Source: a virus (Duplodnaviria > Heunggongvirae > Uroviricota > Caudoviricetes). From it: 12,149 nt of DNA. Made by a program: the position numbers and the translations under genes. Within the stretch, counting starts at the first letter, position 1. Every line of letters starts with the position of its first letter. This document shows, in pieces, positions 1,331 through 12,149 of the stretch. The stretch is taken from the IMG/VR virus record IMGVR_UViG_2737471817_000011, positions 1 to 12,149 of that record; one strand, given 5' to 3'. The notes beneath the pieces were generated by a model that was not told where the DNA came from, ran no database searches, and worked only from the letters and a program-made list of their open reading frames with translations.

Positions 1331-1345
1331 GCTTTTTTATACTAA
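1331..1345. other. attL: attL core: 15-bp lambda-type overlap sequence GCTTTTTTATACTAA
   Basis: Exact 15-mer read at 1331-1345. Left flank (ccgttgaagcct) is bacterial B-arm-like; right flank (gttggcattataaaaaagcattgcttatcaatttgttgcaacgaacaggtcactatcagtcaaaat) matches the lambda P' arm as I recall it. Confidence 0.9.
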
Positions 1346-1426
1346 GTTGGCATTATAAAAAAGCATTGCTTATCAATTTGTTGCAACGAACAGGTCACTA
1401 TCAGTCAAAATAAAATCATTATTTGA
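1346..1426. promoter_or_regulatory. P' arm of attL with tandem Int arm-type sites (aggtcactat / cagtcaaaat, 1392-1411)
   Basis: Arm-type consensus-like decamers read directly at 1392-1401 and 1402-1411, followed by AT-rich aaaatcattatttg. The 3' end of int overlaps this arm, as in lambda. Confidence 0.7.
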
Positions 1427-2489
1427 TTTCAATTTTGTCCCACTCCCTGCCTCTGTCATCACGATACTGTGATGCCATGGTGTCCGACTTATGCCCGAGA
1501 AGATGTTGAGCAAACTTATCGCTTATCTGCTTCTCATAGAGTCTTGCAGACAAACTGCGCAACTCGTGAAAGGTAGGCGGATCCCCTTCGAAGGAAAGAC
1601 CTGATGCTTTTCGTGCGCGCATAAAATACCTTGATACTGTGCCGGATGAAAGCGGTTCACGACGAGTAGATGCAATTATGGTTTCTCCGCCAAGAATCTC
1701 TTTGCATTTATCAAGTGTTTCCTTCATTGATATCCCGAGAGCATCAACATGCAATGTTGTAGGTATGGCAATTTTTACGCCCGTTTTGCTTTGCTCGACA
1801 TAAAGATATCCATCTACGATATCAGACCACTTCATTTCGCATAAATCACCAACTCGTTGCCCGGTAACAACAGCCAGTTCCATTGCAAGTCTGAGCCAAC
1901 ATGGTGATGATTCTGCTGCTTGATAAATTTTCAGGTATTCGTCAGCTGTAAGTCTTGATCTCCTTACCTCTGATTTTGCTGCGCGAGTGGCAGCGACCGG
2001 GTTTGTTGTTATATGGCCTTCAGCTATAGCCTCTCGGAATGCATCGCTCAGTGTTGATCTGATTAACTTGGCTGATGCCGCCTTGCCCTCGTCAATGTAT
2101 CCATTGAGCATTGCCGCAATTTCTTTTGTGGTGATGTCTTCAAGTGGAGCATCAGGCAGACCCCTCCTTATTGCTTTAATTTTGCTCATGTAATTTATGA
2201 GTGTCTTCTGCTTGATTCCTCTGCTGGCGAGTATTTTTTCGTAGCGATCAAGCCATGAATGTAACGTAACAGAATTATCACTGTTGATTCTTGCTGTCAG
2301 AGGCTTGTGTTTGTGTCCTGAGAATAACTCAATGTTTGCCTGTATTGCTTCAGTAATTGCTATCCTCCTGTCTCTGCCTAATCCGAACTCTTTACCCGTC
2401 CTTGGGTCCCTGTAGCAGTAATATCCATTGTTTCTTAAATAAAGGTTAGGGGGTAAATCCCGGCGCTCATGACTTCGCCTTCTTCCCAT
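1419..2489 (-). CDS. int: Lambda-type tyrosine integrase Int
   Basis: 356-aa ORF starting MGRRRSHERRDLPPNLY and ending EWDKIEIK, near-identical to lambda Int as I recall it. Catalytic region contains HELRSL and GHKSDTMASQY (tyrosine recombinase R/H/Y signature). Sits next to the att core. Confidence 0.96.
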   Translation of the reverse strand: MGRRRSHERRDLPPNLYLRNNGYYCYRDPRTGKEFGLGRDRRIAITEAIQANIELFSGHKHKPLTARINSDNSVTLHSWLDRYEKILASRGIKQKTLINYMSKIKAIRRGLPDAPLEDITTKEIAAMLNGYIDEGKAASAKLIRSTLSDAFREAIAEGHITTNPVAATRAAKSEVRRSRLTADEYLKIYQAAESSPCWLRLAMELAVVTGQRVGDLCEMKWSDIVDGYLYVEQSKTGVKIAIPTTLHVDALGISMKETLDKCKEILGGETIIASTRREPLSSGTVSRYFMRARKASGLSFEGDPPTFHELRSLSARLYEKQISDKFAQHLLGHKSDTMASQYRDDRGREWDKIEIK

Positions 2490-2685
2490 TTCTGATCCTC
2501 TTCAAAAGGCTACCTGTTACTGGTCGATTTAAGTCAACCTTTACCGCTGATTCGTGGAACAGATACTCTCTTCCATCCTTAACCGGAGGAGGGAATATCC
2601 TGCATTCGCGCACCCATCGACGAACTGTTTCAAGGCTTCTTGGGCGTCGCTGGCGAGCGTTCCACTCCTGAAGTGTCAAGTACAT
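2467..2685 (-). CDS. xis: Excisionase Xis (lambda-type)
   Basis: 72-aa ORF MYLTLQEWNARQRRPRSLETVRRWVRECRIFPPPVKDGREYLFHESAVKVDL, matching lambda Xis from memory. Its 3' end overlaps the int start by 23 bp, as in lambda. Confidence 0.94.
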   Translation of the reverse strand: MYLTLQEWNARQRRPRSLETVRRWVRECRIFPPPVKDGREYLFHESAVKVDLNRPVTGSLLKRIRNGKKAKS

Positions 2686-2710
2686 CGCAAAGTCTCCGCA
2701 ATTACACGCA

Positions 2711-2736
2711 AGAAAAAACCGCCATCAGGCGGTTTG
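2711..2736 (-). terminator. Candidate intrinsic terminator between the 55-aa ORF and xis (GC stem ccgcc/ggcgg followed by a U-run on the minus-strand transcript)
   Basis: Stem aaaccgcc (2716-2723) / ggcggttt (2728-2735) with loop atca; minus-strand RNA continues with a U-tract (plus-strand A-run 2713-2718). The stop codon of the 55-aa ORF (2725-2727) sits in the loop. Confidence 0.5.
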
Positions 2737-2892
2737 GTGTTCTTTCAGTTCTTCAACTCGAATATTGGTTACGTCTGCATGCGCTATCTGCGCCCATATC
2801 ATCCAGTGGTCATAGCAGTCGTTGATGTCCTCTGCTTCGATAACTCTGTTGAATGGCTCTCCATTCCATTCACCTGTGACTCGGAAGTGCAT
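2725..2892 (-). CDS. Small hypothetical protein (55 aa), positional equivalent of the 55-aa ORF just upstream of xis in lambda
   Basis: Not in the supplied ORF track (below its length cutoff); read by hand from the minus strand: MHFRVTGEWNGEPFNRVIEAEDINDCYDHWMIWAQIAHADVTNIRVEELKEHQTA. GGAGA Shine-Dalgarno 6 nt upstream of the ATG. Same spacing from xis as lambda's 55-aa ORF, by my memory of lambda coordinates. Confidence 0.5.
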   Translation of the reverse strand: MHFRVTGEWNGEPFNRVIEAEDINDCYDHWMIWAQIAHADVTNIRVEELKEHQTA

Positions 2893-2972
2893 TTATCATC
2901 TCCATAAAACAAAACTCGCCGTAGCGAGTTCAGATAAAAGAAATCCATCAATTGGTTAGGGTATTTGTAATT

Positions 2973-3158
2973 CTACGAATTATGTTGTTTTTTAGCTTCA
3001 GCTTTCCATTCATCAAAGGCAGTGTCTTTGTTCATGGTGCTGATATTGATCTTACGGTCAATATCATATACACGCCACTCACCGTTAGGCCTCTCTTCGC
3101 ATCTAACTAAGTATGAATTGCCATTAATATCTATGCGTCTGTCTATTTGCATGAACAT
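2973..3158 (-). CDS. Hypothetical small protein (61 aa from the first ATG; track ORF uses a TTG two codons upstream at 3164)
   Basis: ORF MFMQIDRRIDINGNSYLVRCEERPNGEWRVYDIDRKINISTMNKDTAFDEWKAEAKKQHNS. I recognise no family. It is flanked by AT-rich gaps on both sides, unlike the overlapping genes upstream. Confidence 0.35.
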   Translation of the reverse strand: MFMQIDRRIDINGNSYLVRCEERPNGEWRVYDIDRKINISTMNKDTAFDEWKAEAKKQHNS

Positions 3159-3275
3159 TTTCAATTTTCGAATCCTCTTTAATATGCATTTTTTGCTATT
3201 TCAGTAGTTTACTATTGATGAGGCGTTATTATACACACTTCATTAATGCAAGCATCTTTATGCTATGCTACTAAT

Positions 3276-3557
3276 TTAGCCATCAATATTCACCTTTATC
3301 GCGTACACCTTTACCGGTTTATCGCCGAAGTGCGGATGTGTGATTGTCTTGATTTCATAGCCGCCATACGGAACGTCAATTCTGCGGCTGGAATCGTCGC
3401 GCTTCGGATATCCCTTTGTGATAATCAGGCTGTCATACTCCCGTAACATAATTCGCTTATTCCAATAGTCATTACACAGGCGATACTCTTCCGTTTTCTC
3501 TCCTCGAATCATGGCATCGAAGTATTCACCTTTGACGGCAAGTTGTAGGTTAGCCAC
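3276..3557 (-). CDS. 93-aa phage accessory protein; N-terminal motif resembles PUA-like ASCH/DUF3850 beta-barrel proteins; positional analogue of lambda ea8.5
   Basis: ORF MANLQLAVKGEYFDAMIRGEKTEEYRLCNDYWNKR... The pattern hydrophobic-x-(E/P)YF-x-A-x-x-x-G-x-KT-x-E-x-R is typical of ASCH/DUF3850 N-termini. Its start overlaps the stop of the upstream Lar-like gene by 8 bp (operon). Confidence 0.5.
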   Translation of the reverse strand: MANLQLAVKGEYFDAMIRGEKTEEYRLCNDYWNKRIMLREYDSLIITKGYPKRDDSSRRIDVPYGGYEIKTITHPHFGDKPVKVYAIKVNIDG

Positions 3558-3852
3558 GGTTAACCTCCTGCGGAGTAGCCTTTACAAGCACTGGTGCAAA
3601 TCCATCTTCATTAAGGTTATGAATATAGACTTCTGTTCTCCTGCGCTCTTCAACGTTTAATATTGTTTCTGGATCATAAACCCATACTTTCATTCGACTA
3701 TTCCATGAAGAAATCGCTTCAGATCTAGTTCGTTTTTCTGGTCCTTGGGCACCACATTTGCATGACACATAGCGCATTTTCCCTCTGATACTGAATGAGT
3801 ATCCGATGTTAAGCACAGTGGAACCACAGAATGGGCAGCGATATAGATTCAT
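3550..3852 (-). CDS. Lar-family zinc-ribbon protein (putative restriction-alleviation / modification-enhancement protein)
   Basis: 100-aa ORF MNLYRCPFCGSTVLNIGYSFSIRGKMRYVSCKCGAQGPEK with a CPFCG...C-x-CG four-cysteine zinc ribbon near the N-terminus, as in Lar (RalR-like) proteins. AGGTGGA Shine-Dalgarno upstream. ATGA start/stop overlap with the upstream 254-aa gene. Confidence 0.6.
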   Translation of the reverse strand: MNLYRCPFCGSTVLNIGYSFSIRGKMRYVSCKCGAQGPEKRTRSEAISSWNSRMKVWVYDPETILNVEERRRTEVYIHNLNEDGFAPVLVKATPQEVNRG

Positions 3853-4610
3853 AAATCATCCACCTTAGGCGCAGCTGAGACAGCAACATTCCAGAACTCA
3901 GAAAACATATTGTATGCACCAGATAGATTGGAAGTGGCATACCCTCCAAGCTCACTTCTAATCTGAACGGCTCTCATCATTTCCGGCGTTAACTCCTTCG
4001 GCACCATAACCCAACCATCCGGAGTTACCGGAGAGTTGCCATTTATATCGAAGTTTGGCTCTGCGTCCTGAACCAGGAGGATGTAACCATTCTTGGCAGT
4101 ATCAAGTTCTAACGCCTCGGTGACGGTGCCGAAATAGCGATTGCCTAAATCAGCATCACAAGTGCTTACATCAATGGAAACTTCCATGCCTTCGATTAAT
4201 TCTGGCAAGTTGTAAGTTTGGCTTACATGTTGGCTACCCTGAAGCATGGCGGCGCGGCAGGCGTTCCAGCCTCTCACCTCTGCAATAGCGGCAACAGCAT
4301 CAACCGCGTACATTTTAAGAGGGTTAGGCATTGGTTTTTCTTCAGGTACTACTGGCACTGGAGGGGCGGCATAAACAGGAATAACGTCCGATTGCTCTTT
4401 ATTGCTTTCATCCGTTAAAGCCCAGAATAATTTTCCAGCCGGATGTTTGAAAATATAAGCAACTGGTTCTGCTTCCAGCGATGCCAGCGCCAACTTGAAC
4501 GCCTGAAGCTCAATGGCACTGTTGGTATCCAGTCCAAACGGTAATTCATCACGATTGGCTTCGTATTCAGCGATAGTTTGCTTCAGCCATTCTTTGGTTA
4601 GTTCAGCCAT
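3849..4610 (-). CDS. Hypothetical 253-aa phage early-left accessory protein (positional analogue of lambda ea22; family not recognised)
   Basis: Track ORF 3849-4661; I place the start at the internal ATG 4608-4610 (MAELTKEWLKQTIAEYEANRDELPFG...), which is preceded by AAGGGG. Acidic, proline-rich linker (PVYAAPPVPVVPEEKPMPNP) between two predicted domains. Translationally coupled to the Lar-like gene. Confidence 0.6.
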   Translation of the reverse strand: MAELTKEWLKQTIAEYEANRDELPFGLDTNSAIELQAFKLALASLEAEPVAYIFKHPAGKLFWALTDESNKEQSDVIPVYAAPPVPVVPEEKPMPNPLKMYAVDAVAAIAEVRGWNACRAAMLQGSQHVSQTYNLPELIEGMEVSIDVSTCDADLGNRYFGTVTEALELDTAKNGYILLVQDAEPNFDINGNSPVTPDGWVMVPKELTPEMMRAVQIRSELGGYATSNLSGAYNMFSEFWNVAVSAAPKVDDL

Positions 4611-4614
4611 ATCC

Positions 4615-4824
4615 CTAATTCCCCTTGGTGCTGACTTTGACGCCAACCTTGCGAATCTCATCGGCGCATCTGTTCACGATACTCCGGTGAAACTCACAAA
4701 AAATTTTCGCCGACTGCGGCCCTAATGGGTGAACATCGTGCGCACGCGGCAGTACAACCTCCCGCGCCTCCATGTCAGCAATCCGCTTGTCTTTGGCTTC
4801 CAGCTCATTCAGCAGCGCCAGCAA
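4615..4824 (-). CDS. Questionable small ORF at the deletion junction (TTG start in track; possible 5'-truncated remnant of an early-left gene)
   Basis: Translation LLNELEAKDKRIADMEAREVVLPRAHDVHPLGPQSAKIFCEFHRSIVNRCADEIRKVGVKVSTKGN. No ATG with a Shine-Dalgarno at its 5' end; an in-frame stop lies only 8 codons upstream. It ends 4 bp before the 254-aa gene start. Confidence 0.25.
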   Translation of the reverse strand: MLALLNELEAKDKRIADMEAREVVLPRAHDVHPLGPQSAKIFCEFHRSIVNRCADEIRKVGVKVSTKGN

Positions 4825-5747
4825 TTCAGCAGATTGATACTGAGATATCTAATCTGCAGAAGCTTGGTAAGGTGGCTGATAACGAGACTATTTCAAAACT
4901 TCAGTCATATCGTGATGAGCTTGTTCGCAATGCTGGTCCTGATGGTCCGGTCAATCTGGATTTGAAGCAATTAAGCGATCTGCGCAGCCAGTTCAGAATG
5001 GACGTGAAGGGTGAGCGACCAGTGTTACCAAACCGTTCCGATGCTGCCATTCAGCGAGTTTACAAGGCGATGACCGACGATATCAATGGTGCCATTGGTC
5101 AGAATCTTGGCAATGATACTCTTCGTAAATATCAGCAGGCCAATGCCGTCTACGCTGACGAAGCGGCGAAACTAAAGAATACCAGGCTGAAGAATGTTCT
5201 CATGAAAGGCGACCTGACTCCGGAAGTTGTCAACAACATGCTATTCAGCAAGAACAAATCGGAAATTAAGACTCTGTATAACTCAGTTGGTCGTGTTGGC
5301 AGGGCGCAAATGCGCAATGGCATCATTGGAAAGGCGATGGAGAAATCAGGTGGTTCCCCTGACCAGTTCCTTCGGCAGCTTAATATCCTGCAAAACCATA
5401 CTGGCATCACATTTAAGGGGCAGGACTCTGCTTATCTGAAAGGATTAAAAAACTACCTGCAATCCACGCAGCAGGCTGCAAAAGCGGCAGTAACAACACC
5501 CACAGGGCAGCAAACTATCCCGTTCATTATTGGGTATGGGACGGCAATGAACCCGGCGACAACTGGCGCAGCAGTAAGCTATGGACTTCTTACGCGCGTC
5601 TATGAGAGCGAGCCATTCAGAAATGCAATGCTCCGAATGGCAAACACCCCGCGCGGATCAACAGCGTTTGAGAAAGCCATGCAGCAGGCACAAAAGGCAA
5701 TTAACGCTATGACGCAGGGGGCTAAGTCTGATGCGTTGTCAGAATAG
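4725..5747 (+). pseudogene. Probable 3' fragment of a P22-like internal virion / DNA-ejection protein gene (gp16-like by position); the first ~35 codons of the track ORF are probably not coding
   Basis: Long + strand ORF ending 90 bp before a convergent mnt-like gene, the position gene 16 occupies relative to mnt in P22. The C-terminal region is Ala/Gln-rich (QQAAKAAVTTPTGQQ...MQQAQKAINAMTQGAK). The N-terminal 4725-4830 is GC-rich, low-complexity and overlaps a minus-strand ORF. Confidence 0.4.
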
Positions 5748-5836
5748 CTTTTCAAACACCAGGAAAGTACAAAAACCAAATATGTAGAATGCAATATTCA
5801 TCATATCTCTTTGCATAAATCCTCCGTAATGGATGG

Positions 5837-6097
5837 TTAGTTGCTGTCTTTTTTATATAGCTCCTTGAGCGTATCAAAGACAATTTTCTTAACCATATCA
5901 GATTGTTGTTCTGCCATACGCTCTGCATCGTCAATGTAAACTGATGCAGAGCTTTGTTTATCCAATGATTCTTCAATCGCTGCAATTATCTCTGAGTTCA
6001 GCGACCTGTTATTCATCTTCGCACGCTGCTTAATTTTCGCGTGGAGTTCATGCGGAAGTCTCAAGTGAAACTGCGCCTCGTCGTATTTGCTGTACAT
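5837..6097 (-). CDS. mnt: Mnt-like ribbon-helix-helix repressor (immI-type)
   Basis: From the internal ATG at 6095-6097 (AAGGA Shine-Dalgarno upstream): MYSKYDEAQFHLRLPHELHAKIKQRAKMNNRSLNSEIIAAIEESL...DAERMAEQQSDMVKKIVFDTLKELYKKDSN. Closely parallels P22 Mnt as I recall it (FNFRMPMEV...GRSMNSELLQIVQDAL...DAERLADEQSELVKKMVFDTLKDLYKK). Confidence 0.8.
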   Translation of the reverse strand: MYSKYDEAQFHLRLPHELHAKIKQRAKMNNRSLNSEIIAAIEESLDKQSSASVYIDDAERMAEQQSDMVKKIVFDTLKELYKKDSN

Positions 6098-6170
6098 CCT
6101 TGATGCCTCACCAGTTGGGTGGAATGGCATCGTAACCTACTGGATAAATACTCAACAGTACCATTTCGGT

Positions 6171-6193
6171 ATGCAATCACATCATGATTGCAT
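6171..6193. promoter_or_regulatory. Perfect 9-bp inverted repeat with 5-bp spacer (ATGCAATCA-catca-TGATTGCAT); candidate operator upstream of mnt
   Basis: Read directly at 6171-6193. Lies in the 131-bp gap between the mnt start (6097) and the HNH gene stop (6229), where an immI-type operator/promoter would be expected. Confidence 0.45.
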
Positions 6194-6228
6194 CATATCA
6201 TTCGTCTGGAGCAATGAAATGTCAGATA

Positions 6229-6729
6229 TCACCTACTCAACAGATGGTCAGCAACCATGTTTGCTGCCTTATAAGCTATAGCAGCTTCATCAATGGTGTT
6301 GAATCTCCCAAGGGTTATGTTTTTACCTGAGACATTTATCTGAGCTTGCCATTGATTTCTGGCTTGACAGAAAGTTACCCCCTTGATCCCAGCATTGCTA
6401 TTTCGAGGTCCGACATTTAATGCATTTACGACTCTGCTGACATCCCTAAGGTTTGAGATTGCGTTATTTCTTCTGTTTCTATCAATGTGGTCAATCTCTT
6501 GTTTGGGCCATTCGCCATATACATACAGCCAGGCAAGTCTATGTGCAAAATATCTTACGCCATCAATATTAATTGCGTTATATCCATAAGAAATTGTGCC
6601 AGCAACTTTCCCAACAGCACCTCTGGCGCTTAATTTCTTTTTCCAAGTGAAAATTCCTGTTTCTTTATTGTAATCGAGAACCTCCATAAGGCGCTCCCGA
6701 GTTACTACCTCGTGACGTCTCTTACTCAT
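6229..6729 (-). CDS. HNH endonuclease with C-terminal AP2-type DNA-binding domain (homing-endonuclease-like)
   Basis: From the ATG at 6727-6729 (GGAG Shine-Dalgarno upstream): [14 protein letters not shown]... HNH_3-type motif [36 protein letters not shown], then AP2-like [43 protein letters not shown]. Confidence 0.8.
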
Positions 6730-6751
6730 TATTTTCTCCGGAATGTTTATT

Positions 6752-8644
6752 ATGCCAGAACAATTATACAACGTTGTTGTTTCACAACCAAGTCAGTTAT
6801 TTACTTTAGCTCGCTCGTTTAAAGCAAATGCCAATGGCAAAATTTATATCGGAAAAATTGACACTGACCCTGTAAATCCTGAAAACCAGATTCAGGTTTA
6901 TGTGGAAAACGAAGACGGCTCTCACGTTCCTGTATCGCAACCAATCATCATTAACGCTGCTGGTTACCCGGTATATAACGGACAGATTTCCAAGTTCGTA
7001 ACCGCGCAAGGCTATTCTATGGCTGTGTACGATGCATACGGCTCTCAGGAGTATTACTTCTCGAGAGTTAAAAATGACACGCGGTCAGTCACATCATTCC
7101 TGAGTAGCAGGGAATTATGGAAGAAGTACTTGAAGGAATTTGGAATCGTTCTAGTTGATGGTAGCTTTGAGGAAGGGGCAACAGTTAGCGCACCAAATCA
7201 GGCTGTATGGTATAAGTTTGATGGAAAGTGCTATGCAAGAGTAACCGGAGATAGCGTTATCGTTGCATCTGGCTCATCGCCAGACTCAGGCTGGACATCT
7301 GACATTGGCTCACGCATTAAAGCGTGGCTCCCTAATACATCACCAAATACAGATGTATCTACGCGTTTGCAGGCATTGCTTACAGTCGGGAAAGGTGAGA
7401 TTAAAATCCCTGACGGGCGCTATACGGTAAACACCGTCCTTATTACTAACTTTAGCGATTCATCATTCCCATCACTGGGGGCTGGCAGTCCACGTTATAA
7501 TTTTAGCGGTTCATCGATTAACAATACTATTTTCACGGTTTCTGATAATTACTTGCTGAATCACACTGGTGGGGTGAGCGGAACTGTAGTTCATGGAACA
7601 AACACTTATATGAGAACCGGTGATTGTCAGATAATTGGAACTGGAGCAACAAGTAGCGGTGGTTTCAAGTTTAGTTTTTGCACATTTATTGAAGTCGAAA
7701 ATATACGTGCAGCATTGCTTGGAATTCCAGTGTATTTTGCAAACTGCATATATAACTATGTGCGAAACATCAGAGTTGATAATTCTCTGTACGGCATATT
7801 TACAGAAAGTTCAGATCCATCATTCCCAACAAATTCAACATTTGTTGATGATTCAACATTTACTTACTGCTCAAGATATGCTGTAGAGGCGACCATTGGT
7901 CTCACCTTTAACATGACCAATTGCAGTATTGAGAAAAATGGTGTACAAGGTGATGTAAATACTGGTGGGATTTATTTAAAGGTTACTGAGCCGTTAAGTG
8001 TTATAAATATCACTGGAACGTATTTTGAAGCAAACAAAGGAAATGCTGACATAACTGTCCTTAACTCTGGCGGCGGCACCATAGTCGTAAATTTAATAGG
8101 TTGCACGTTTAACAGAGGTAACTCAGATGGGGGTTATACATTAACAAACTTCAAATCACTGTCTCATGCAGGGGTTGGTAAGATTATACTAAATCTACAA
8201 GGGTGTCATTTCTTCTCAAATACATCGTGGGGATTTACTCCATCGGCTGATAAACCTTTTATTACACCTGACACATGGCTTACTGTTAATGGTCTGGATA
8301 CATGTACATTCAGTGAAACAACAAGTCTACCAGACACTATTCAATCAAGCTCATCCAGTATTAGCGTCAAGGTTGCTGCGGATGGTACAAAAATCAGCGG
8401 CCCATCCTACATCACAACGTCAAAAACAGGAACTGGAGTTTATTCAGTAACAAGTAATTATCCATTAGGTACATCGCCTGTTGGCAATGATTATTCCGTA
8501 ATGGCTATATCCAACATCGATGGTTTTGTTGTTACAAGCTCGGCAAATCAAAGTGCAACTTCCTTTAATGTAAGAACTAAAAGTTCTTCCGGTTCCGCTG
8601 CAGACACAGCCTTTAGTGTGACAATTACAAGACGAATTGGGTGA
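6752..8644 (+). CDS. Tailspike protein: P22-type N-terminal head-binding domain plus a distinct beta-helix-like receptor-binding domain
   Basis: Residues ~10-105 ([72 protein letters not shown]...AVYDAYGSQ) parallel the P22 gp9 head-binding domain as I recall it. The rest is Ser/Thr/Asn/Gly-rich with repeated N-x-(S/T) and Cys-containing short repeats, typical of right-handed beta-helix depolymerases. Alternative start at 6743. Confidence 0.85.
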
Positions 8645-8649
8645 TTAAG

Positions 8650-8679
8650 GATGGCGCATATGCGCCATCTTTTTATTTA
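8650..8679. terminator. Bidirectional intrinsic terminator between convergent tailspike and gtrC genes
   Basis: Perfect 20-bp palindrome GATGGCGCATATGCGCCATC (8650-8669) followed on the + strand by TTTTTATTTA. The gtrC stop codon (8673-8675) lies in the T-run. Confidence 0.65.
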
Positions 8680-9947
8680 TTGATTACGCAATCATAAAAG
8701 GCTGATACCTGACCTAAATTACCAAAAAACCAATACTCTCTGTTGTTAATATATCTATATGTATATGGCGTTGAGATTCTATTAACTTTAATTCCATTTT
8801 TACACGACCCATTAAACCTTGCAGATTCAATTGTTGATTCTCTTAATGAATCTTGTGCTGAATATGCAACAGCTGCCTTAAGAGCAAGTAATGATGATGG
8901 AACCGACAGTAACACGATGGATAGCAAAATTATTATTGATGCCTTGCTTTGTTGTGATATCACCAAAATAGTGGAGCGAGTTATAACTGCTGTCATTATG
9001 CACCATGAGAACATGAATGCCCTTGCTTCTGTGTATGGTGACATAATCATTGAACCATCAACAAGAACAGCGGCAATAATACAGAGCCATATTTTTACAC
9101 TCGCTTTATTGGTATAAATTAAATATCCAATTGAAATAACGGATATAAACATTAAAAACCATGATGTAGTTACGAAAACAGTGATAACATCAATAATTCT
9201 TGCCGTGATGTAATCAATGCTCATTCCATTGTAATTTAAAGCATGTTGATAAAATTCCTTTCTCCGTACTGTTGATGGAGCTAGAACAATGATAATCCAT
9301 CCTGCCAACACAAAAATCATAGGAATAATGCGCTTTATTGATAGATTATCATTAATAAAACAAAATAATAACATCGTTATAAGTAAAGCAACTGGTACAT
9401 TTTCAAAACTAAGTCCAGCCAAGAGACATGCAAATAAATACACGCAATAATATTTTATTTTTATTTTTTCAATTAAATTGTAATTTATATACACAAGCAA
9501 TACCGATAGCGTTATTACCATCGGTTGCAGGTATCCAGCATTTGCTGTTTTCCAGAAAAAAACCTCAAATCCAGGCCAGAACGAATATATTGCAATAATT
9601 GAAACGCATGTCCCAAACATAGCGTTATTGCTATCATCTGAGAAAATCCTGAAAATAATATAAGATAGGGCCAAAAAAGAAATAATTGATACGACTATAA
9701 AAAATGTTGGCGGCATGCTCAAGTTAAATATTGCAAGTTGCTCACCAAGCCTTGCGTTCCACATTTCAATTTGTCTTGCTGATCTTTCAACTGAATACAT
9801 GATTCTTGTAATCAAGTCGTGATTAATGAATCTTTTGGTTAATGCAAAATCCTCACCAGCCAATGGGAATATTGAGAATGTTATTGCATAAACAGATGTA
9901 AGAAAGCCTGCAACTATGTAGATGCAGCGATTTATGTTATTTACCAC
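8673..9947 (-). CDS. gtrC: GtrC-type serotype-specific O-antigen glucosyltransferase (polytopic membrane protein)
   Basis: 424-aa, strongly hydrophobic ORF with many predicted transmembrane segments, immediately downstream of gtrA-gtrB and overlapping the gtrB stop by 11 bp. GTG start 5 nt after AGGAGG. Very AT-rich (only 11 G/C in 9421-9480). Confidence 0.75.
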
Positions 9948-10863
9948 ATTCCCCTCCTTTCAGAATATAGCGCGGACGATGCTTAACTTCTGTATAAATT
10001 CTGCCAATATATTCACCAAGAACGCCGATTCCAATCAATTGAATGCCACCGAGGAATAGTATTGATACAAGAAGTGACGGATACCCAGGAACGTTGTTGC
10101 CAAACATCAGCTTGTCAATAATCATCCACGAGCCATACATAAATGACAGGCTGGCGACAAAAAGGCCAATGTATGTCCACATTCTCAGTGGTAAGGTAGA
10201 GAAGCTGGTGATTCCTTCGAGTGCCAGATTCCATAACTTCCACCCGTTGAATTTAGAATCACCTGCGACGCGTTCTGCCCTGGCATACTCAACAACATCT
10301 GTGCGTCCGCCAACCCAGCTCAGCACGCCCTTCATAAATAGGTTGCGTTCCGGCATGAGTTTTATGTTCTCCACGACCTCGCGGGACATCAGACGGAAGT
10401 CACCAACGTTTTCTTCAATCTTCGGATGACTAATTTTGTTGTGCAGTTTATAAAACCACTCAGCGGTTTTTCGCTTTAATCTTCCATCAGTAGATCGATC
10501 TGATCGTTTTGCAAGCACCATATCAGCACCTGCCTGCCACTTTTCAATAAGATGAGGAATAACCTCAATCGGGTCTTGCAGGTCAACATCAATTGGAATT
10601 ACAGCATCTCCGGTTGCATGGTCTAACCCTGCAAACAATGCTGGTTCTTTACCAAAGTTTCGTGTAAATGACAGCGGAACAACTAGAGGATCTGAAACGG
10701 ACAGAGCGTTAATGATTGACTCCGTAGCGTCTTTGCTACCATCATTTATAAAAACAATTTCCACTTCATATGGCTTCAACTCTTCGAATTCACGTACCGT
10801 TTTATAAAAAATTGGTATCGCTTCCTCTTCATTGAAGACAGGAACGACCAGAGATATCTTCAT
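9937..10863 (-). CDS. gtrB: GtrB bactoprenol (undecaprenyl-phosphate) glucosyltransferase, GT2 family
   Basis: 308-aa [53 protein letters not shown]... (GT2 N-terminal fold, DxD-type region PIDVDLQDP) with two C-terminal transmembrane helices, the classic GtrB/YfdH architecture. 4-bp ATGA overlap with gtrA. Confidence 0.92.
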
Positions 10864-11222
10864 TTCGCATCCCTAAAGACAATGAACTTTGAATAGACGA
10901 AACCGCACACCAAGCTGATGGCGGAGAAGGTGACAAGAGTGACAATTGGAGGAAGTGCACATCTATCAGCAGCCCATCCAACAGTAGCACTCAGTGTTCC
11001 CATGAACCCGACATATAACATGTAACGCATCGTTGTAGTTGATGCTTTGAATGTGAATTTTGCATTCGCGAAGAAGCTAAAACTCACAGCCACAACAAAA
11101 CCTGCGAAGTTTGCAAGAGCCTGATTTGTATGCGCGGCATAGATACATACACCAAAAACCACCCAGTGTATAAGTGTGTTCAGCACACCAATCGAGGTGT
11201 ACTTTGCAAATAGCTTTAACAT
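10860..11222 (-). CDS. gtrA: GtrA flippase-family small membrane protein
   Basis: 120-aa [62 protein letters not shown]... with four predicted transmembrane helices. Recognised from memory as GtrA (YfdG-like). First gene of the gtr operon, as in P22 and Shigella serotype-converting phages. Confidence 0.92.
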
Positions 11223-11386
11223 TTATTTAATCAATGAGTTCATGAAAGGCATGAAGTCTATCATCCAAGTCTCAATCGATCGATACTTGCTATGGTTGAT
11301 GAGACAAAACTGAGACACACAAAGCTTTGCACTGAATTGCAAGGCTTTGTTCTTCTCTGGAGTGCGACAAGTTTGATGACAAAAAA

Positions 11387-11421
11387 TTAGCGCAAGAGGA
11401 CAAAAAATCACCTTGCGCTAA
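11387..11421. promoter_or_regulatory. sib-like stem-loop (candidate RNase III retroregulation site) on the phage side of the P arm
   Basis: Stem TTAGCGCAAG (11387-11396) / CTTGCGCTAA (11412-11421) around a 15-nt loop. It sits where lambda sib sits relative to attP, on the far side of the P arm from int. Confidence 0.45.
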
Positions 11422-11567
11422 TGCTCTGTTACAGGTCACTAATACTATCTAAGTAGTTGATTCATAGTGACTGCATATGTTGCGTTTTGCAGTATTATAC
11501 AGTCTATTTTTTAAGCCAAATGTATTGTAAGTGATTGCTATTAATGATTTTTGCTGTTTCTGGTTCA
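11422..11567. promoter_or_regulatory. P arm of attR with Int arm-type sites (acaggtcactaat at 11431-11443; catagtgactgcatat at 11460-11475)
   Basis: The distal P arm (ctctgttacaggtcactaatactatctaagtagttgattcatagtgactgcatatgtt) matches lambda from memory. The core-proximal ~60 bp (aagccaaatgtattgtaagtgattgctattaatgatttttgctgtttctggttcagc) appears to differ from lambda. Confidence 0.65.
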
Positions 11568-11582
11568 GCTTTTTTATACTAA
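11568..11582. other. attR: attR core: second copy of the 15-bp core GCTTTTTTATACTAA, followed by bacterial B' arm (cttgagcg)
   Basis: Exact 15-mer at 11568-11582, a direct repeat of 1331-1345. Downstream cttgagcgaaacggg matches the attB right arm as I recall it. Confidence 0.9.
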
Positions 11583-11641
11583 CTTGAGCGAAACGGGAAG
11601 GTAAAAAGACAAAAAGTTGTTTTTAATACCTTTAAGTGATA

Positions 11642-11672: not shown

Positions 11673-12149
11673 TTAACTAAACATCGCAGTAATCGAGGCG
11701 CTTGCCAGAGAGTGGAAATGAACGTTAAACCCGACCATCGCGCCGCTGGCACCTTCATCGACATCAATACGTTCTATATCCAGCGCGTGAACGGTAAAAA
11801 TGTAGCGATGAGTTTCGCCTTTCGGCGGTGCTGCGCCATCGTACCCGGTTTTACCAAAGTCGGTACGCGTCTGCAAAACGCCGTCTGGCATTGCTACCAG
11901 ACCAGAGCCAAACCCTTGCGGTAATACGCGGGTATCAGCGGGTAAGTTAACAACTACCCAGTGCCACCAGCCGGAGCCGGTTGGCGCATCCGGGTCATAG
12001 CAGGTGACGACAAAACTTTTCGTTCCCGCAGGAACATCATCCCACGCCAGATGCGGTGAAATATTATCGCCATCGTAACCCATGCCGTTAAAGACATGAC
12101 GATGCGGCAACTTATCGCCATCGCGCAGATCATTACTGATGAGTTTCAT
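11673..12149 (-). CDS. ybhB: YbhB, PEBP (phosphatidylethanolamine-binding protein / RKIP) family protein
   Basis: 158-aa ORF MKLISNDLRDGDKLPHRHVFNGMGYDGDNISPHLAWDDVPAGTKSFVVTCYDPDAPTGSGWWHW..., PEBP signature DPDAP...GxxHW. Start codon is the last 3 bases of the window. Known neighbour of attB-lambda on the bio side. Confidence 0.88.
   Translation of the reverse strand: MKLISNDLRDGDKLPHRHVFNGMGYDGDNISPHLAWDDVPAGTKSFVVTCYDPDAPTGSGWWHWVVVNLPADTRVLPQGFGSGLVAMPDGVLQTRTDFGKTGYDGAAPPKGETHRYIFTVHALDIERIDVDEGASGAMVGFNVHFHSLASASITAMFS

Follow-up and report, generated by a model that had tools for sequence, protein, structure and literature searches.

The locus examined here raises the question of why a leftward lambda-like early gene should meet a rightward P22-like virion gene head to head, with the beginning of each gene missing. 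The original prediction, made from the letters alone, was that a deletion or recombination joint had connected a lambda-like early-left operon to a P22-like virion gene. The window (the whole stretch of DNA analysed, 12,149 nt in length) is an E. coli-type chromosome segment, and ybhC and ybhB at its two edges are the E. coli genes that bracket the lambda attachment site. Two exact copies of the 15-nt lambda att core, GCTTTTTTATACTAA, were found in the window, against 0.04 expected by chance. The 10.2 kb between these copies is therefore an integrated element, whose ends are duplicated att cores and whose position, between ybhC and ybhB, is a known site of phage attachment. The features of the window are listed in Table 1.

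Table 1. Features of the window, with the strand and the basis of each assignment.
Feature	Position	Strand	Basis or remark
ybhC	1-1284	minus	left edge of window; adjoins attL core
attL core (lambda att core)	1331-1345	plus	exact 15-mer
lambda-type integrase	1419-2489	minus	ORF list; Pfam Arm-DNA-bind_1 and Phage_integrase on record for identical gene in L013
excisionase (xis)	2467-2685	minus	ORF list; Pfam Exc on record for identical gene in L013
surviving early-left accessory genes, block including two small ORFs	2725-4661	minus	ORF list
ASCH-like gene	3276-3557	minus	RefSeq annotation of near-identical gene in ETEC4091
Lar-family gene	3550-3852	minus	TIGR03655, E = 5e-16
DUF551-type gene	3849-4661	minus	RefSeq annotation of near-identical gene in ETEC4091
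ead/Ea22-like 3' fragment, last 69 codons and stop	4615-4823	minus	first 81 codons and start deleted
deletion breakpoint, AGCA common to both parents	4820-4823	.	three-way alignments
gp16-family 3' fragment, C-terminal ~309 codons	4820-5747	plus	P22 DNA ejection/transfer protein; first ~357 codons deleted
Mnt/Arc-type repressor gene	5837-6130	minus	Pfam Arc 1e-14, Repressor_Mnt 3e-14
HNH_3/AP2 endonuclease-like gene, between mnt and tailspike	6229-6771	minus	Pfam HNH_3 2.5e-16; AP2 below cutoff
tailspike gene, P22-type head-binding domain, intact ORF	6743-8644	plus	Pfam Head_binding 3e-55
gtrC-type gene, O-antigen glucosylation operon	8673-9947	minus	Pfam DUF6056/GT_STM0557_N
gtrB	9937-10863	minus	Pfam Glycos_transf_2
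gtrA	10860-11222	minus	Pfam GtrA_DPMS_TM
attR core, second exact copy of the 15-mer	11568-11582	plus	adjoins ybhB
ybhB	11673-12149	minus	right edge of window

Analysis of the element between the att cores, using the ORF list and scans against Pfam, NCBIfam and PHROG, revealed no repressor or cro, replication, nin, lysis, terminase, portal or coat genes. We therefore observed an element in which the immunity, replication, lysis and head modules are all missing. As judged from its gene content, this is a defective P22-like prophage remnant of 10.2 kb at the lambda attachment site, without about three quarters of an intact P22-like genome, and virion formation is predicted to be impossible. A phage satellite or PICI-like small element was also considered, and was rejected because each gene at the joint is a shortened version of a normal phage gene and because neither replication nor packaging functions turned up in the scans.

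The left arm carries a lambda-type integration module, consisting of an Int with an arm-binding domain and a tyrosine recombinase domain, Xis and the exact att-lambda core. This module is followed by the early-left accessory genes, and the last of these before the joint lies in a minus-strand frame that is open from 4848 to 4615, as originally predicted. The frame is closed upstream by a TAG at 4849-4851, and its earliest possible start is a TTG at 4824. The sole in-frame ATG (4771-4773, codon 26 of the open stretch) corresponds to an internal methionine of the intact homologue, in agreement with the prediction that this frame runs into a stop without having a proper start.

We aligned each flank of the joint separately to intact phages and prophages, and the identities proposed for both sides were upheld. 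A left-flank query of 271 nt (4560-4830) matched 49 complete E. coli genomes, 41 of them over at least 80% of its length, and in 38 of these 41 the match to the left parent stopped at window position 4823 (query position 264). Identity reached 99.2%, and the matched genes are annotated as 'ead/Ea22-like family protein'. The intact ead gene of strain WP4-S18-ESBL-08 encodes 150 amino acids; the copy in the window is without the first 244 nt (81 codons) and covers only positions 57-132 of the 133 in phrog_1667. The fragment of 77 amino acids showed no matches in Pfam or NCBIfam, because the Ead_Ea22 domain (PF13935), which is matched at residues 2-101 of the intact 150-residue relative, sits in the N-terminal part that was deleted. 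Since this relative shares 99.2% DNA identity with the window over the retained part, the fragment is the remnant of a family member and not a functional member. In intact prophages (for example in ETEC4091) and in phage Huey, ead lies in the leftward early operon with DUF551, abc, erf and kil as its neighbours. The lambdoid gene order of these intact relatives implies that the early-left genes of the window are deprived of the pL promoter region, which would be located in the deleted part.

The right arm opens with the gp16 fragment. Matches to gp16 begin at 4806-4820 in more than 1000 E. coli genomes, and this part of the window is 96-98% identical at the nucleotide level to the genes of 683R2, Gally, Sf6, IME10 and many E. 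coli prophages. An intact gp16 protein has 665 residues; the window enters it at about codon 357, and 1070 nt are missing. One gene of each module is truncated with respect to its intact homologue, just as had been proposed. The 309 residues that remain align with positions 335-666 of the 668 in phrog_770 ('DNA transfer protein', E = 3e-122), and PF26808 (Phage_P22_gp16) is on record for the chimeric ORF in which the fragment is now read.

This chimeric ORF of 340 amino acids runs from an ATG at 4725 to 5747. Both strands had been predicted to be open between 4615 and 4850; on the plus strand, however, the gp16 frame is open only from 4641, after a stop at 4638-4640 and some 25 nt later than claimed, and the ATG at 4725 is its first. 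The frame had also been described as low in complexity until about 4835. Its first ~31 residues (MGEHRAHAAVQPPAPPCQQSACLWLPAHSAAP) are indeed rich in Ala and Pro, being the ead gene read in antisense, but the homology to gp16 begins at 4820, about 15 nt further to the left. The 340-residue ORF is an accident of reading frame, and what remains of the two genes at the joint is most reasonably viewed as dead pseudogene fragments. A scan for promoters and terminators around the joint returned no more than was seen in shuffled controls, and nothing ahead of the truncated ORFs; an intact start accompanied by a promoter would have argued against a joint, and neither ORF has one. Nor did any single gene span the joint or extend without a break across 4700-4900.

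Beyond the gp16 fragment, the window carries an Mnt/Arc-type gene, a tailspike with a P22 head-binding domain and gtrABC adjoining the att site, in the order of a P22-like late-operon right arm. This gene order agrees with that in Sf6, 683R2 and Huey. The nucleotide homology of the tailspike gene to its relatives stops near 7050, past the head-binding domain, and gtrA and gtrB are 84-88% identical to their counterparts in SfII, SfIV and HF4s. Several GATC sites are expected where P22-style phase variation operates; a Dam/OxyR signature of this kind was not evident upstream of gtrA, and 11223-11600 contains one GATC only. With the tailspike and gtrABC intact in the remnant, O-antigen glucosylation is plausible as a surviving function, and would serve as lysogenic conversion that blocks the adsorption of related phages, a role of gtrABC covered in a preprint (bioRxiv 10.1101/2023.08.15.553423).

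We then located the exact breakpoint by alignment, together with the microhomology that the original prediction had suggested might be present there. Homology to ead ends at 4823 and homology to gp16 starts at 4820, so that two genes that are distant in intact relatives, each truncated at its 5' end, abut head to head and the homology switches from one to the other at a single point. Judged by the genomes in which the two sets of matches stop and start here, this switch did not arise by chance. The left parent reads ...CTCATCCAGCAGCGCCAGCA/CGGTAGC... at the joint (the stroke marks the breakpoint), the right parent, in the allele of 23-AB02114, Z142-1 and IME10, reads ...ACATTCAGCCTGCGCGAGCA/ATTCAGCAG..., and the window reads ...CTCATTCAGCAGCGCCAGCAATTCAGCAG.... 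The AGCA that is common to both parents lies inside an 8/9 match, GCGC[C/G]AGCA (4815-4823), to the left of the crossover. Every base at the joint is explained by the two parental sequences, with zero inserted bases. Random breakpoints simulated in the two closest parental relatives gave at least 4 nt of exact identity with a probability of 0.017, and a match of at least 8/9 with a probability of 0.00015 for the same parents. The joint therefore displays microhomology in the strict sense, namely identity at the exact breakpoint that is above chance and unaccompanied by inserted bases.

One base in the vicinity departs from this simple picture. The window has a T at 4809 where all close relatives of the left parent have a C. 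With this T, CATTCAGC agrees with the deleted part of gp16 and ATTCAGCAG becomes a direct repeat of 9 nt on the two sides of the joint (4807-4815 and 4824-4832); the substitution could hint at a more complex event. A reading of T4809 as a heteroduplex or patch-repair tract was set aside, since it is not needed: intact ead genes of four viral contigs also have the T allele, although these genes belong to distant relatives only.

Taken together, these results point to a single internal deletion of a P22-like prophage by microhomology, which left a remnant behind, and we place the probability of this explanation at about 0.88. A P22-like temperate phage with a lambda-type int/xis/attP would have inserted between ybhC and ybhB, where lambda has its attachment site. 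One internal deletion would then have fused its early-left ead/Ea22-like gene to the gp16 ejection-protein gene of its late operon, at a short imperfect homology of 4 exact bases (AGCA) and 8/9 overall. The likely route would be RecA-independent illegitimate recombination or replication slippage. The deleted segment would have comprised the remaining early-left operon, the immunity region, the replication and nin genes and the lysis genes, along with the terminase, portal, coat and tail-adaptor genes and the other ejection genes, some 28-33 kb in all. What was left over would be a predicted non-viable remnant of 10.2 kb, with the att cores, int, xis and a few early-left genes intact on one side, and Mnt, the HNH gene, the tailspike and the gtrABC O-antigen-modification operon on the other. 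Such a remnant may persist either through useful lysogenic conversion by gtrABC, or because the event is recent.

The case for one parental phage is drawn largely from the intact phage Huey (38,575 bp). Its genome carries a P22-type virion module, the ejection-protein genes and a tailspike, followed by int/xis/attP and then by the leftward early genes. The int/xis/attP segment of Huey is 98.2% identical to window 1331-2716, and its early region includes the same ead segment at 98.5% identity. The gene content and order of Huey therefore show that one phage type can carry both arms in the order required. We attempted to map the gp16 breakpoint in Huey by tblastn and obtained no match, because the gp16 of Huey is of a different sequence type; the deletion size was for this reason estimated from gene positions and not from a gp16 breakpoint in Huey. 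The equivalent of the retained part occupies ~7 kb in a Huey-like genome. Since intact relatives measure 38.5-43 kb and the remnant 10.2 kb, ~28-33 kb would have been lost, which is in line with the ~30 kb claimed originally; this size is drawn from relatives and is not a measurement.

An undeleted prophage with the tailspike receptor domain and gtrC of the window was found neither in complete E. coli genomes nor in phage records, GTDB representatives or IMG/VR contigs, so that the single-prophage origin and the size of the deletion both rest on relatives. On this basis both arms probably derive from one prophage. The original picture of two joined modules holds to the extent that both arms could be identified, and can be refined: a single P22-like phage that carries a lambda-type integration module, of the kind seen in Huey, describes the prophage better than two separate elements do.

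A contribution from two prophages is nevertheless conceivable, though we consider it unlikely. Here, either a lambdoid and a P22-like prophage in tandem at att-lambda, or an incoming and a resident phage, would have recombined such that the early-left region of one was joined to gp16 of the other, with the removal of more than 30 kb. ETEC4091 carries the left-arm module at the same site too, in a lambdoid prophage whose virion module is not of the P22 type, and the two arms therefore need not share one genome. In addition, identity to Huey falls to 89% in the att P' arm near attR, as against 98% on the int side. However, each arm of the element has its lambda-type att arm correctly oriented and is flanked by its native neighbour, ybhC or ybhB, intact phages with exactly this combination exist, as seen with Huey, and two prophages would need more events than a deletion within a single genome. 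There is even less to commend an artefact of assembly, in which the joint would be a chimeric contig, or a deletion brought about by an IS element that was later excised or by Int acting at a secondary att site; to each of these we give next to no credence. The first of them was a caution attached to the original prediction, and the joint was indeed absent from 5,426 complete RefSeq E. coli genomes, from the GTDB species representatives (searched with 50-nt and 28-nt patterns) and from IMG/VR. An exact-protein lookup, on the other hand, placed the 340-residue chimeric ORF, whose first 31 residues cross the joint, on six contigs in NCBI and Logan. A contig of 152,855 bp (NLZP01000010.1, in GCA_002511355.1) matches 11,747 nt of the window at 99.99% identity, and the Logan assembly of the independent run SRR12721269 is 100% identical over 5,059 nt (window 4326-9384). 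The joint was thus observed repeatedly in independent public assemblies, which rules out the misassembly that had been feared; moreover, an overlap of 4 nt is too short to make an assembler join two contigs, and misassembly is therefore excluded for practical purposes. The assemblies that bear the joint may all be short-read and come from clonally related strains, and its absence from the complete genomes, GTDB representatives and IMG/VR makes it appear to be a lineage-specific event. As regards IS elements and Int, similar remnants in EC2, MB19 and 23-AB02114 do carry IS1 or IS3 at their joints. At the joint studied here, in contrast, we looked for an IS sequence, a long repeat, a terminal inverted repeat and a target duplication and found none of them, the two parents explain every base without any additional DNA in the middle, and no other sequence resembling the att core was present in the window, even when 2 mismatches were allowed.

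A different kind of proposal concerns function, and we regard it as very improbable. The remnant would be a domesticated island for anti-phage defence and surface modification, with the C-terminal half of gp16 serving as a dominant-negative decoy. The set of int, gp16 C-terminal fragment, Mnt, tailspike and gtr would then be under selection, hence the repeated reduction of P22-like prophages to this form, and, as a speculative extension, the 340-residue ORF, if expressed, would poison the gp20/gp16 DNA-ejection conduit of superinfecting P22-like phages. Mutations that escape SieA map to the C-terminal regions of gp16 and gp20, according to the preprint cited above (bioRxiv 10.1101/2023.08.15.553423). 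Remnants that have kept a gp16 fragment or gene are found in E10, VE-T9 and 23-AB02114; these are compatible with a decoy and do not demonstrate one.

Under the preferred explanation, a single microhomology deletion within one P22-like prophage, the feature is an ordinary scar of cryptic-prophage decay, one more example of a familiar type, and its importance hardly extends further than accurate annotation. Neither the ORF at 4615-4824 nor that at 4725-5747 should be recorded as a gene; both are pseudogene fragments, and the 10.2-kb element should be entered as a defective P22-like prophage that may still alter the O antigen by way of gtrABC. Defined to the base, the joint is a clean instance, found in nature, of a prophage inactivated by a microhomology deletion.

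The cryptic prophage CPS-53/KpLE1, at argW in E. coli K-12, keeps intS and yfdG/yfdH/yfdI, which are gtrA/gtrB/gtrC-like. The remnant in the window resembles cryptic E. coli prophages of this type in having been cut by deletion to an integrase and a few accessory or lysogenic-conversion genes. It differs from them in lying at att-lambda, in retaining both att cores, int and xis intact, and in having as its joint a clean microhomology deletion, with no IS and no further disruptions. The clean joint and the lack of further disruptions suggest that the deletion in the window is recent. In general terms the remnant is what would be expected of cryptic or 'grounded prophages', the subject of a review (PMC6379469).

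Intact P22-like phages (the Lederbergvirus members Sf6, 683R2, IME10 and Gally, and also Huey) share with the window the Mnt/Arc gene, the tailspike head-binding domain and the gene order; they share gp16 at the identity given above over the retained part, with the exception of Huey, which for its part has the integration module and the ead segment in common with the window. Closest in overall layout are the remnants in EC2, MB19 and 23-AB02114, which also lie at att-lambda, have int-xis-ea on the left and Arc, tailspike and then gtr or acyltransferase genes on the right, and total ~10-14 kb. However, they have independent joints at other positions, with IS1 or IS3-family elements in them; they differ from the window in the tailspike receptor domain and in gtrC, and cover only 42-46% of it. 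At argW, the remnants in E10 and VE-T9 have likewise kept a right arm with gp16, whole or as a fragment, together with Arc, tailspike and O-antigen-modification genes. These independent remnants at att-lambda and argW indicate that the reduction of P22-like prophages to integrase, tailspike and O-antigen-modification genes is recurrent, and the joint described here, together with the IS-associated remnants elsewhere, illustrates this recurrent reduction to an integrase-plus-serotype-conversion island.

Independent remnants of P22-like prophages, 10-14 kb in size, were found in the E. coli strains EC2, MB19, 23-AB02114, E10 and VE-T9, inserted either at att-lambda, the lambda attachment site between ybhC and ybhB, or at argW. 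The ends kept in these remnants are similar: int, xis and ea genes make up the left one, and the right one consists of Arc, tailspike, and either gtr or acyltransferase genes. The joints differ, and an IS1 or IS3-family element is usually present there. The P22-like remnants at these two sites look like the outcome of recurrent convergent reduction.

Positions of the features discussed (window coordinates unless stated)
Feature	Position	Strand	Remark
Lar-family ORF	3550-3852	minus	100 aa
Public gene call on identical DNA	4826-4969 of public-assembly locus L013		47 aa
Repeat ATTCAGCAG, left copy	4807-4815		
Repeat ATTCAGCAG, right copy	4824-4832		
gp16 stop to mnt gene	5748-5836		
HNH_3/AP2 endonuclease-like gene	6229-6771	minus	between mnt and tailspike gene
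Tailspike part beyond head-binding domain and gtrC-type gene	7050-9947		
Region between gtrA and attR	11223-11567		
Remnants of EC2 (L020), MB19 (L021), 23-AB02114 (L005)	att-lambda		
Remnants of E10 (L007), VE-T9 (L022)	argW		

In the window, the joint between the ead/Ea22-like and gp16-family fragments is flanked by a 9-nt direct repeat, whose left copy is perfect solely because base 4809 is a T, as opposed to the C found in all close ead/Ea22 relatives (Asp to Asn). This T also lengthens the similarity with the upstream sequence that the deletion removed from gp16 (CATTCAGC), and four intact but distant ead genes of IMG/VR carry the same allele. The T at 4809 and the repeat may be due to chance, or they may have been left by the recombination event.

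Homology to relatives ends at ~7036-7056 and is seen again in gtrB. Neither for the receptor-binding part of the tailspike, beyond the head-binding domain, nor for the gtrC-type gene was a near match detected in 5,426 complete E. coli genomes and 50,697 phage records. The GC content of the gtrC-type gene is 33%, and the gene contains a DUF6056 domain. The two may form an O-antigen specificity pair that is rare or has yet to be described.

The longest ORF of the HNH_3/AP2 gene shares 29 nt with the beginning of the tailspike ORF. Some relatives (VE-T9, GF66.2) carry the gene; most others lack it, and there the match is broken in two around its position. The gene looks like a mobile homing-endonuclease insertion.

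A match to the Lar restriction-alleviation family covers residues 3-54 of its ORF. The public call starts further downstream and leaves out the Lar domain, and therefore the start of this gene is probably wrong in the public annotation.

In P22, a Dam/OxyR phase-variation switch with several GATC sites lies upstream of gtr. The window has a single GATC between gtrA and attR, as against several in P22, and the switch may therefore be absent upstream of its gtr genes. The gap from the gp16 stop to mnt is just ~90 nt and holds no sieA-type superinfection-exclusion gene, unlike the corresponding interval of P22, which carries one.
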